Of a stretch of 64,000 nucleotides of DNA, positions 59,672-63,056 are shown piece after piece. The notes under the pieces are model-generated. The model was not told the DNA's origin. It did no database searches and saw only the letters and a program-made list of their open reading frames with translations. The stretch covers positions 12,470 to 76,469 of the forward strand of contig DXFO01000022.1 in assembly GCA_019114415.1 (NCBI GenBank). The letters run 5' to 3'. Source of the stretch: Candidatus Gemmiger faecavium. Its GTDB lineage: Bacteria > Bacillota > Clostridia > Oscillospirales > Ruminococcaceae. Positions within the stretch are counted from its first letter, which is position 1, and every line of letters begins with the position of its first letter. Position numbers and translations under genes: made by a program.

Positions 59672-59754
<83 letters not shown>

Positions 59755-59781
59755 CATTGGAATGGACTTTGCTCCATTCAA

Positions 59782-59808
59782 GAAGCCCAGCCTTTTGGCT
59801 GGGCTTTT
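59782..59808 (+). terminator. tRNA terminator
   Basis: aagcccagcc-tttt-ggctgggc-tttt. Confidence 0.85.
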
Positions 59809-59978
59809 GATATTTACTGCGCGCAATACGCTTGCGATTCTACTCGGTTGTTCGTGTTTGCGCCTGTGTCTCCTTCAGACCATATTCCCCTATATCTTTG
59901 CTTCGGAACAGGCTTTCTTTCCCGGATTATTTGGAGTAAAATATAAAAAACTTAACGTTCCGAGAAAGGTACCGCGTC

Positions 59979-60623
59979 ATGGAATTTCAAATCATAGACC
60001 AACAAGCCTGGCCCCGAAAAGAATACTTTGACCACTACTTTTCGGCTGTTCCCTGCACATACAGCATCAATACCAAGCTGGACATCACCGCCATTTTACA
60101 AAAAGGCATCAAGCTGTACCCTGCCATGCTGTACGCAATCACCACCATCGTAAACCGCCACAGTGAATTCCGAACCACTTTAACACCCGATGGCGAAGTG
60201 GGGGTGTTTTCCGACATGATACCCTGCTACACGGTTTTTCACAAGGACAACGAGACATTTTCAAACCTCTGGACGGAGTATCATCCCCGGTTTGGAGACT
60301 TTTTGCAGGCCTACCGGCAGGACCTGGAACAATATGGCGATATCCATGGAATGGAGCCAAAGCCCGGCACGCCGGCGAATACCTTTCCGGTCTCCATGGT
60401 TCCCTGGGTCACCTTTGACGGGTTCAATCTGAACCTGCAGAACGGTTACAATTATCTGCTCCCGATTTTTACCATGGGGAAATATTATACCGATCAGGAA
60501 CGCTGCCTGCTTCCGCTGGCCATTCAGGCTCACCATGCCGTCTGCGACGGGTTTCATGTCTGCCGTTTTATCAATGAATTGCAGGAGCTGATTTCGAAAG
60601 AAGAAACCTTTGCAGACGCCTGA
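59979..60623 (+). CDS. cat: Type A chloramphenicol O-acetyltransferase (CatP/CatD-like)
   Basis: 'W.RKEYFDHY', 'PCTYS', 'KLYPAMLY', 'NRHSEFRT', 'SMVPW', 'PIFTMGKY', catalytic 'HHAVCDGFH'. Confidence 0.92.
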   Translation: MEFQIIDQQAWPRKEYFDHYFSAVPCTYSINTKLDITAILQKGIKLYPAMLYAITTIVNRHSEFRTTLTPDGEVGVFSDMIPCYTVFHKDNETFSNLWTEYHPRFGDFLQAYRQDLEQYGDIHGMEPKPGTPANTFPVSMVPWVTFDGFNLNLQNGYNYLLPIFTMGKYYTDQERCLLPLAIQAHHAVCDGFHVCRFINELQELISKEETFADA

Positions 60624-60725
60624 ACCGGGCTTTCCCTTTGCCGTTACCTCGCAATCGTTCCTGGCGTGCCGTACCATTTCATGGACATCCTTCCCAGCAA
60701 TGGCACTACTTTTGATACATACTAT

Positions 60726-60776
60726 AAAAACAGAGATCTTCACCGGCAGAATCAGCTGATGAGATCTCTGTTTTTT
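60726..60776 (+). terminator. Terminator between cat and the MarR gene
   Basis: aaaaacagagatct...agatctctgtttttt. Confidence 0.75.
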
Positions 60777-60839
60777 GTCTTGGCCCATCTTTGCATTTTA
60801 TTTTTGACACAACTTCCCGCAAAATTTTTCACACTTTTA

Positions 60840-60886
60840 TACTTGACTTAGTCAAGTAAAGAGCCTATACTTGACTAAGTCAAGAA
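60840..60886 (+). promoter_or_regulatory. Sigma-A promoter overlapped by two 19-bp palindromes (candidate MarR/BilQ operator)
   Basis: TACTTGACT-T-AGTCAAGTA (60840-60858) and TACTTGACT-A-AGTCAAGAA (60868-60886); -35 TTGACT (60843-60848) -17 nt- TATACT (60866-60871). Confidence 0.88.
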
Positions 60887-60904
60887 AAGGAGTTGACTGT
60901 TTTC

Positions 60905-61357
60905 ATGTTTCAAACTCTGGCCTATTACGCCACTGTATTCCATCGCAGTTTTGTCGGCTACACCACAGAGCGGCTTCAAACGCTGGGGTTGAACTTCGGG
61001 TCACTGTTTCCGGTCATTTACGTCGGCAAGCACCCTGGATGCACCCAGGCAGAGCTGACCGCGGCCCTGCATCTGGACTGGGGCTACTCCCAGCGCTGCA
61101 TCACCAAGCTGGTAGAGACCGGGTTTCTTACCCGGGAAAAATCCTCGCGTGCTTATCACCTGAACCTGAGCGAAAAGGGCAAGGAAGCTTTTGCGGCAAG
61201 CCATCAGGTCTTTTTCGATTGGGATGCCGAAATGCTGACGGCTCTGGACGAAACGGAACGGGAACAGCTGTTCTCTCTCTTGACAAAAGTAATCCGGAAA
61301 GAAGCAGAATCCTCATGTATGAAACGATCCAAAGCCCCTTCAACTACGGAGGGCTGA
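60905..61357 (+). CDS. bilQ: MarR-family transcriptional regulator (BilQ-like)
   Basis: wHTH pattern 'HPGCTQAELTAALHLDWGYSQRCITKLVETGFLTR...LNLSEKG'; first gene of a MarR-OYE-flavodoxin triad. Confidence 0.82.
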   Translation: MFQTLAYYATVFHRSFVGYTTERLQTLGLNFGSLFPVIYVGKHPGCTQAELTAALHLDWGYSQRCITKLVETGFLTREKSSRAYHLNLSEKGKEAFAASHQVFFDWDAEMLTALDETEREQLFSLLTKVIRKEAESSCMKRSKAPSTTEG

Positions 61358-62427
61358 CGCTGAAAAATCGCATCCTCTTTGCCCCGACCAGCCTTGGGCT
61401 GTCCCAGGAGGAAACACTGGAACGGCTGCGCAGCATTGCAGCCGGCGGCTGTGCCATGATCATTGTGGGAGACGTCCCCGTCCTGCCCCATGGATTCGGG
61501 CCTTCGCTGTACACCAAAAAAGGGCAGGCCTACTACCGTGCCATGGCAGACGCCGTTCATCCTTACGGCTGCAAACTGTGTGCACAGCTGCACCAGTCCG
61601 ACTCCGATCTGAAAGGCATGATCCGATACATCCCCGGCGTGCTGACCAAACGGATCTCCATGGAAGAGCTTCGTCCTTTGCTCAATCAGCAGGTAGGGCC
61701 TTACATCACCGGTTTGTCTGAGAAAAAGATTCACCAAATCACCGAATCTTTCGGCCAGGCGGCAGAGCTGGCTTTGCAGGCCGGATTTGACATGGTACAG
61801 GTCCACGGCGACCGGATGTGCGGAAGTTTCAGCTCTTCCCTGTTCAACCACCGGACCGACTGCTACGGCGGCAGCCCCGAGAACCGGGCCCGGTTTGCCG
61901 TGGAAGCAGTCTCTGCCATCCGCCGCCGGTTTCCCGAACTGCCCATCGATTACAAACTGGCGATTCGCCAGGAAAACCCGCACTACGGAAACGCCGGTGT
62001 ACTGGAAGAGGAACTCCCGGTTTTTGTTCCGCTTCTGGAAAAAGCCGGGGTCACCAGTTTCCATGTGACACTTGCCAATCACGGTGAGTTGAGCGATACC
62101 ATCCCGCCGAAAAGCCATCCCGAATTTGGCGGCGAAGGCTGCTTTTTGAAATTCTGCGACGAAGTCCGCCAGCTGACCCGCTTACCCGTCTGCGCCGTGG
62201 GCGGTCTGACCGATCCCGATTTCATCGAGCAGCAGCTGGCCTGCGGGCGGGTGGATTGCATTGCCATGAGCCGACAGCTCACCGCCGATCCCCAGTGGCC
62301 CAACAAAGTCTGTTCCGGGCGCGTCCGGGAAATCCATCGCTGTGTCCGCTGCAACAAGGAATGTCTCGGCGGCATGATGGCCCATCGGGGCGTCCACTGC
62401 ATTTATGAAAGGAAGGAAACCAAATGA
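61315..62427 (+). CDS. bilR: Old Yellow Enzyme-family flavin oxidoreductase with HGDR motif: bilirubin reductase, short form
   Basis: 370 aa from ATG 61315; 'LKNRILFAP', 'GFDMVQVHGDR', 'NHRTDCYGGSPENRARF', 'AVGGL', 4Fe-4S motif C-x2-C-x3-C-x11-C at the C-terminus. Confidence 0.85.
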   Translation: MYETIQSPFNYGGLTLKNRILFAPTSLGLSQEETLERLRSIAAGGCAMIIVGDVPVLPHGFGPSLYTKKGQAYYRAMADAVHPYGCKLCAQLHQSDSDLKGMIRYIPGVLTKRISMEELRPLLNQQVGPYITGLSEKKIHQITESFGQAAELALQAGFDMVQVHGDRMCGSFSSSLFNHRTDCYGGSPENRARFAVEAVSAIRRRFPELPIDYKLAIRQENPHYGNAGVLEEELPVFVPLLEKAGVTSFHVTLANHGELSDTIPPKSHPEFGGEGCFLKFCDEVRQLTRLPVCAVGGLTDPDFIEQQLACGRVDCIAMSRQLTADPQWPNKVCSGRVREIHRCVRCNKECLGGMMAHRGVHCIYERKETK

Positions 62428-62906
62428 GTTACTCCATTGTATACAGCAGCCGTACGGGTAACACCGCTCTGCTCGCCCAGACCATCCGCGACACGCTGCC
62501 TGCCAGTGACTGCGTCTATTTCGGTGCGCCGGATGCAAAAGCCCTTGCCGCCGACACCATTTATGCAGGATTTTGGACCGACAAAGGCACCTGTGACGAA
62601 CAGGTCGCCCAGTTTTTGCAGAGCCTGAACGGGCAGAAAGTATTTTTGTTCGGCACGGCAGGCTTTGGCGGCGCTCCCGCCTACTTTGAGCAGATCCTGA
62701 ACCGGGTACGGGAGAACCTGCCGGAAACCACCGAACTGATCGGCAGCTACATGTGCCAGGGCAAAATGCCCGCAGCAGTCCGTGCCCGGTATGAGGCTAT
62801 GGAGGACAATCCCCGCCGGGCAGCCATGATCGAAAACTTTGACCGTGCCTTAAGCCACCCCGATGCGCAGGACCTGGACGCCCTTGCCAATGCCGTGCGC
62901 CGTTAA
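62424..62906 (+). CDS. bilS: Flavodoxin-like protein (BilS-like)
   Basis: FMN loop 'YSSRTGNT', 'GFWTDKG', 'FLFGTAGFGG', 'MCQGKMP', 'SHPD'; ATGA overlap with bilR. Confidence 0.85.
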   Translation: MSYSIVYSSRTGNTALLAQTIRDTLPASDCVYFGAPDAKALAADTIYAGFWTDKGTCDEQVAQFLQSLNGQKVFLFGTAGFGGAPAYFEQILNRVRENLPETTELIGSYMCQGKMPAAVRARYEAMEDNPRRAAMIENFDRALSHPDAQDLDALANAVRR

Positions 62907-62945: not shown

Positions 62946-62971
62946 GCCCCGGCCTTCCGGCCGGGGCTTTT
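62946..62971 (+). terminator. Terminator after bilS
   Basis: gccccggcc-ttcc-ggccggggc-tttt. Confidence 0.85.
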
Positions 62972-63056
62972 CTGTATCAACCAAGGTATTATCTGCTTTC
63001 GCTTTTGCTGCGCCTTCGGTGTTGCCCGACAAACGAGGCAAAATCCCGTCTATCGG

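Follow-up and report, generated by a model that had tools for sequence, protein, structure and literature searches.

An intact short, split-form bilQRS operon in Candidatus Gemmiger faecavium with divinyl-urobilinogen as its predicted product

Here we describe a bile-pigment reduction operon, bilQRS, in Candidatus Gemmiger faecavium, which is an established species name. It lies in a stretch of 64,000 nucleotides (hereafter the window; assembly GCA_019114415.1, contig DXFO01000022.1) derived from chicken gut metagenomes, and one sequencing run from 2017 contains the sequence without differences. Positions 60905-62906 of the window hold three co-directional, overlapping open reading frames (ORFs) for a MarR-type regulator, a 370-residue enzyme with an Old Yellow Enzyme (OYE) fold and a flavodoxin. 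An earlier reading made from the letters alone (the sequence-only reading) had described a MarR-OYE-flavodoxin operon here, and every element it described is present where it was placed. The operon consists of the following features:

60885-60892, plus strand: ribosome-binding site (RBS) of bilQ, AAAAGGAG, preceding the bilQ ATG
60905-61357, plus strand: bilQ, MarR-family transcriptional regulator of 150 residues, ATG at 60905 and stop at 61357, matching NF045593
61315-62427, plus strand: bilR, short-form bilirubin (bilin methine-bridge) reductase of 370 residues, a flavin mononucleotide (FMN) TIM barrel with a C-terminal 4Fe-4S motif, matching NF045592
61804-61815, plus strand: codons of the active-site motif HGDR (H164-G165-D166-R167)
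62341-62400, plus strand: codons of the predicted 4Fe-4S ligands, C343-x2-C346-x3-C350-x11-C362, from the alignment with FadH (1PS9)
62424-62906, plus strand: bilS, flavodoxin (Flavodoxin_3) of 160 residues, matching NF045594 and, by analogy, a putative electron donor to BilR

Because of the NCBIfam equivalog scores, the HGDR motif and the placement of BilR in a maximum-likelihood (ML) tree, the locus can be identified as an intact short, split-form bilQRS operon of Candidatus G. faecavium, an identification that is fully supported.

Genes and their order

All three proteins score above their NCBIfam equivalog cut-offs, which bears out the short, split form of bilQRS proposed by the sequence-only reading. 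BilQ reaches 159.8 bits against a cut-off of 125 (NF045593; gene immediately upstream of bilR), BilS 226.2 bits against 155 (NF045594; gene immediately downstream of a short bilR) and BilR 556.5 bits against 425 (NF045592; E = 2.7e-167), the last over positions 1-363 of a 363-position profile. At the family level, membership in BilR by profile hidden Markov model is defined by E < 1e-100 in Hall et al. and by the 425 bits of NF045592, a cut-off that no protein exceeds in any of 14 control genomes. In Pfam, BilS matches PF12641 (Flavodoxin_3) with E = 1.3e-51, and both matches of BilQ fall just below their gathering scores (MarR_2, 26.6 versus 27; MarR, 23.2 versus 24.6).

The start codon of bilQ at 60905 is conserved in Gemmiger gallinarum. 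The bilQ and bilR genes share 43 nt in different frames (61315-61357; 40 nt in G. gallinarum), and the match to the BilQ profile reaches no further than residue 132 of 150, which leaves the overlapping tail outside the conserved domain. The flavodoxin gene, first described from the letters as coupled, follows bilR directly, and its ATG overlaps the bilR TGA (ATGA), an arrangement consistent with translational coupling.

For comparison we used 80 related loci from a scan of species-representative genomes, which are 68-88% identical, come nearly all from Oscillospirales and include no assayed species. The order Q-R-S is found in 66 of them, whereas seven lack bilS, five lack bilQ and two are cut by a contig end; a bilS gene follows bilR, or may do so beyond the contig end, in 73 of the 80 (66 with all three genes, five without bilQ and the two that are cut). 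It is also the order of the published operon in Clostridium symbiosum, as had been claimed.

BilR motifs, fold and phylogeny

Homology shows BilR to be a TIM-barrel ene-reductase of the validated short-BilR clade, with FMN and a 4Fe-4S cluster. It carries HGDR at residues 164-167, with numbering identical to that of the Ruminococcus (Mediterraneibacter) gnavus BilR, where the sequence-only reading had expected other OYEs to have H-x-x-H-G-Y. That contrast holds up across the whole library: in a phmmer search over representatives, full-length matches above about 160 bits all have HGDR or a close variant, whereas nearly all those below it have HGAHGY-type motifs. Across 15 aligned short and long BilRs, G165 and D166 are invariant and three rows differ at H164 or R167, and a D166A/R167A mutant of the R. 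gnavus enzyme is reported by Hall et al. 2024 (PMC10769871) to have lost activity.

Cysteines 343, 346, 350 and 362 are likewise invariant across the aligned short and long BilRs, and they align with the CxxCxxxC...C (CIGCNQAC...C) of Escherichia coli FadH (1PS9). The protein ends eight residues past the last cysteine of its CxxCxxxCx11C motif and therefore has no flavin adenine dinucleotide (FAD) or NAD(P)H domains; none was found with Pfam, in which PF00724 (residues 7-337) is the only domain of BilR. The earlier description of an enzyme that stops at its 4Fe-4S motif is thus accurate. With 370 residues compared to 375 in C. symbiosum BilR, it belongs to the short form, which we define by PF00724 as the only domain and a length of at least 50% of that of C. 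symbiosum BilR.

The AlphaFold model of BilR is a TIM barrel (predicted local distance difference test (pLDDT) score 84, predicted TM-score (pTM) 0.86), with low pLDDT in the 4Fe-4S region, as expected when the cluster is not modelled. No BilR structure was found in the copy of the PDB that was searched, and the best solved-structure match is FadH 1PS9 (E = 3e-29 by sequence, TM-score 0.73 on the query), which was also the best structural match for BilR according to Hall et al. 2024 (PMC10769871). The two share an equal spacing of FMN barrel and 4Fe-4S cysteines, but FadH has FAD and NADPH domains, carries MGSEGY instead of HGDR and acts on a coenzyme A (CoA) thioester.

To place the enzyme among its relatives, we combined it with references drawn from the supplementary tables in Hall et al. 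2024 and in the preprint on BilV, a second OYE of the pathway, and computed an ML tree (LG+C20) from 49 TIM-barrel domains. The HGDR clade, the short-BilR clade and the BilV clade each have a support of 100/100, and the long BilRs form a separate clade (98/87). Within this tree, the window BilR branches well within the short clade and belongs to the smallest group that unites both assayed short enzymes, those of C. symbiosum (65.6% identity over the full length) and Clostridioides difficile (49.4%). Phylogenetic placement had been proposed as a check on the sequence-only reading, and by it the protein is a member of the validated short-BilR clade, not an outsider.

The operon of C. symbiosum WAL-14163 (WP_003504328.1; PMC10769871) resembles that of the window in its three genes and their order, in HGDR, the 4Fe-4S cysteines and a separate BilS, and its genome has no BilV, as is the case for G. 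faecavium. Unlike the window, where the organism belongs to Oscillospirales of the chicken gut and function is assigned by homology, it comes from a member of Lachnospirales of the human gut whose BilR was assayed. The long BilR of R. gnavus (WP_009244284.1) shares with the window BilR the TIM barrel, the HGDR numbering, the 4Fe-4S cluster and, as predicted for the window enzyme, the reduction of methine bridges, but has fused flavodoxin-like and NAD(P)H-binding domains, does not need BilS and is encoded in a genome that also encodes BilV.

These comparisons bear on an alternative in which the enzyme is a BilR-clade ene-reductase for a substrate that is not a bile pigment, such as another conjugated enoate or a dietary or plant tetrapyrrole, and in which the name BilR has been propagated too far. 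The number of BilRs with an assay is small, bilirubin is a minor part of what the host bird excretes, and Hall et al. 2024 (PMC10769871) place bilR also in aquatic and soil Flavobacteriales. However, the window enzyme shares 65.6% of its residues with an assayed one across the full length and is nested between two of them, it has the HGDR motif and dedicated BilQ and BilS partners of the same kind as in the assayed operons, and biliverdin, the avian pigment, is a demonstrated substrate of BilRS. We consider a different substrate very improbable and retain the reading of the enzyme as a bilin reductase.

Whereas the sequence-only reading suggested that the system might be new to this lineage, it was already on record. 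The window BilR is identical at 370 of 370 residues to the entry 'GCA_019114415.1, Gemmiger faecavium, Short' in the Supplementary Table of Hall et al. 2024, where its N-terminal peptide occurs a single time, and the two almost certainly represent one and the same gene, from a single metagenome-assembled genome or species. Further short BilRs in the table come from Gemmiger sp014982805, G. formicilis, G. formicilis_A, Gemmiger sp900545545 and Gemmiger_A avium. Because of these entries, the presence of BilR in the lineage counts as published, and Hall et al. 2024 had already reported the BilR family, the split arrangement of bilQRS, its distribution across Oscillospirales and the very same protein; the table covers BilR only, and the operator, BilQ, BilS and the neighbourhood are not in it. 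Close homologues of BilR are already named 'bilirubin reductase' by NCBI, whose annotation pipeline names such genes. Our analysis therefore adds little to the published record beyond a corrected product prediction and comparative support for the BilQ operator.

Counting short and long forms, BilR is found above cut-off in 16 among 36 same-genus genomes plus the window's own. Within Gemmiger (genomes G013, G016, G021, G026 and G030), BilRs above the cut-off are either short, with about 370 residues, or long, with 646-654 residues, and G021 has both forms.

Predicted product and substrate

The prediction that this organism converts bilirubin to urobilinogen does not survive more recent work. 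Two 2026 preprints (PMC13252198; 10.64898/2026.06.10.731317) report that reduction by BilR is confined to the methine bridges, giving divinyl-urobilinogen, and that urobilinogen requires BilV, an AHAH-motif OYE that reduces vinyl groups. BilV shares the OYE superfamily and the pathway with BilR, but lies in another clade, carries another motif and acts on the C3 and C18 vinyl groups.

We found no frame bearing AHAH in six frames of the whole G. faecavium assembly, which is 92% complete and contains only two PF00724 genes. The second of these, an OYE of 683 residues on contig C31, was the best tblastn match to five BilVs (28-31% identity). It was rejected as a BilV, as it carries HAVHEGY compared to HAAHAH in BilV, has this low identity and falls outside the 100/100 BilV clade; in the ML tree it groups with non-HGDR OYEs. 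This protein, which resembles an enoate reductase, is a long form with TIM barrel and FAD/NAD domains (C31:78337-79476 region; L002:610-2661, minus strand) and scores under every NCBIfam cut-off (BilR-long, 343 versus 750; BaiCD, 339 versus 825). Next to it lies a gene for a ferredoxin-reductase-like protein of 388 residues with a 2Fe-2S domain (BenC-like; L002:2678-3844, minus strand). Beyond this genome, no BilV is encoded within 6 kb of bilR in any of the 80 related bilR-short loci, and bilV is reported to be co-encoded in just 0.4% of bilR-short species (PMC13252198).

Because no BilV was found in the genome, we infer that the reduction of bilirubin or biliverdin by G. faecavium stops at divinyl-urobilinogen and that the organism alone does not reach urobilinogen. 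The same correction applies wherever a short bilRS occurs without bilV: the product to predict is divinyl-urobilinogen, not urobilinogen. Alternatively, BilRS could reduce both the methine bridges and the vinyl groups, so that the organism alone takes bilirubin to urobilinogen. BilR was first described as a urobilinogen producer (Hall et al. 2024, PMC10769871), and short BilRS is positive in a zinc-fluorescence assay. Liquid chromatography-tandem mass spectrometry in the two independent preprints, however, detected divinyl products only, for R. gnavus BilR, C. difficile BilRS and C. symbiosum cultures alike, and the genome lacks both a BilV and any OYE with the AHAH motif. Complete reduction by this organism thus appears unlikely, if a little less so than a substrate outside the bile pigments, and we keep divinyl-urobilinogen as the predicted product.

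In the mechanism that we propose for it, based on analogy with FadH and the long-form BilR, the reduced flavodoxin BilS would donate electrons to the 4Fe-4S cluster, from which they would reach FMN; FMNH2 would then transfer a hydride to the methine-bridge double bonds of bilirubin at C5 and C15, with the D166/R167 pair of HGDR as the likely supplier of protons. Full reduction to urobilinogen would require community neighbours that carry BilV.

In the chicken gut, biliverdin may be the main substrate in vivo, because birds excrete mainly biliverdin and, with C. difficile BilRS, biliverdin yields the divinyl products that BilR forms from bilirubin (PMC13252198). Avian gut microbiomes are in addition reported to be dominated by bilR-short and depleted in bilV (PMC13252198). 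For birds, the relevant substrate is thus probably biliverdin.

We put a probability of roughly 0.9 on the overall reading, that is, a bilQRS operon repressed by BilQ, whose BilRS yields divinyl-urobilinogen and for which biliverdin is perhaps the main substrate. Several points weigh against it. With an assembly that is 92% complete, a BilV could lie on a missing contig, and both papers that report divinyl products are preprints (PMC13252198; 10.64898/2026.06.10.731317). In the experiments given in Hall et al. 2024 (PMC10769871), bilR and bilS were expressed together, and the electron path from BilS to BilR is one that we infer. The activity of this BilR, as that of any Gemmiger BilR, is assigned by homology, and the evidence of transcription comes from Logan contigs of one run, labelled 'RNA?', that may contain DNA.

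Predicted operator, transcription and the tRNA-Leu neighbourhood

The operon has one promoter and one terminator, and the former is covered by two repeats of 24 nt, 28 bp apart, each of which is an inverted repeat with the palindrome CTTGACTnAGTCAAG:

60838-60861, plus strand: putative operator box 1, palindrome TATACTTGACTTAGTCAAGTA, a candidate BilQ site that covers the -35 hexamer TTGACT
60843-60871, plus strand: predicted sigma-70-type promoter, TTGACT-17 nt-TATACT, matching the consensus at 10 of 12 positions
60866-60889, plus strand: putative operator box 2, palindrome TATACTTGACTAAGTCAAGAA, extending over the -10 hexamer and onward as far as the RBS
62946-62977, plus strand: strong intrinsic terminator, a 9-bp all-GC stem GCCCCGGCC/GGCCGGGGC (hairpin 62946-62967) followed by the T-run TTTTCTGTAT

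The position of the promoter relative to bilQ is conserved in G. gallinarum. Of the 74 related loci whose upstream sequence is long enough, 69 carry one or more exact copies of TTGAC-N3-GTCAA within 160 bp upstream of bilQ, and 34 loci have two copies, spaced by 28 bp in 32 and by 27 bp in two. The motif is specific to this position, as, of its 109 matches across 930 kb of locus sequence, 103 are located in these regions upstream of bilQ. This is strong comparative evidence for the twin palindromes as the predicted BilQ operator. BilQ would bind both palindromes as a MarR-type dimer, over the -35 and -10 elements of its own promoter, and so repress bilQRS, and a bile pigment would presumably release it. 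If so, the conserved operator offers a concrete handle on the control of the operon by BilQ.

In the chicken-gut run X6, labelled 'METAGENOMIC RNA-Seq', contigs about 99% identical to the window cover bilQ, bilR and bilS (60805-62604). Should this run, whose type is guessed and in which DNA may be present, prove to be RNA, it would show transcription of the operon in vivo.

Upstream of bilQRS lie two further genes:

59672-59754: tRNA-Leu(TAG)
59979-60623: cat, type-A chloramphenicol acetyltransferase, matching NF000491 with 309 bits against a cut-off of 270

The locus of G. gallinarum DSM 109015 is syntenic with the window, in the order ispDF-spo0A-spoIVB-tRNA-Leu ... bilQRS-permease, the last being an AI-2E-family permease gene downstream of the bilQRS terminator. 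Between the two genomes, homology ends at the end of the tRNA-Leu and restarts at the bilQ operator, leaving a variable slot of about 1.1 kb (59755-60840) that holds cat in the window and an ORF of 176 residues for a P-loop protein in G. gallinarum. No copy of cat occurs in any of the 80 related bil loci or at the syntenic locus of G. gallinarum, and no integrase, transposase, other mobile-element gene or att-like direct repeat of the tRNA-Leu 3' end was found around cat-bilQRS. Since it is missing from G. gallinarum and the related loci, its slot is variable and there is neither an integrase nor an att-like repeat, cat is strain- or species-level variable cargo outside the bil system. The tRNA and cat to which the sequence-only reading drew attention are thus indeed neighbours of the operon, but their proximity is incidental.

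It could also be argued that cat and bilQRS form one mobile unit integrated beside tRNA-Leu, an island of resistance plus metabolism. Both lie directly downstream of the tRNA, cat and bilQRS are also joined on a contig of about 98% identity from the independent chicken-gut run X4, and the contexts of bilQRS vary widely across genera. Set against this, the mobility genes and att-like repeats of such a unit were not found, and in the same chromosomal slot (spoIVB-tRNA-Leu ... AI-2E permease) both G. gallinarum and a second Gemmiger species carry bilQRS but no cat, so that only the 1.1-kb cat segment varies; moreover, cat has a terminator-like hairpin and bilQRS a promoter of its own. There is little to recommend a single mobile unit, and we read cat and bilQRS as separate.

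A broader picture, which we offer tentatively and consider possible but doubtful, would make biliverdin, in place of bilirubin, both the natural inducer acting on BilQ and the natural substrate of BilRS, the operon an electron sink that ends at divinyl-urobilinogen, and the slot next to tRNA-Leu a small recombination hot spot that received cat in poultry-associated strains.

About 100 nt downstream of the stop codon of cat, two 14-nt arms, AAAAACAGAGATCT and AGATCTCTGTTTTT, form a perfect inverted repeat around a loop of 22 nt, and T residues follow it (60726-60775). This hairpin is probably the cat terminator and would separate cat from the bilQRS promoter.

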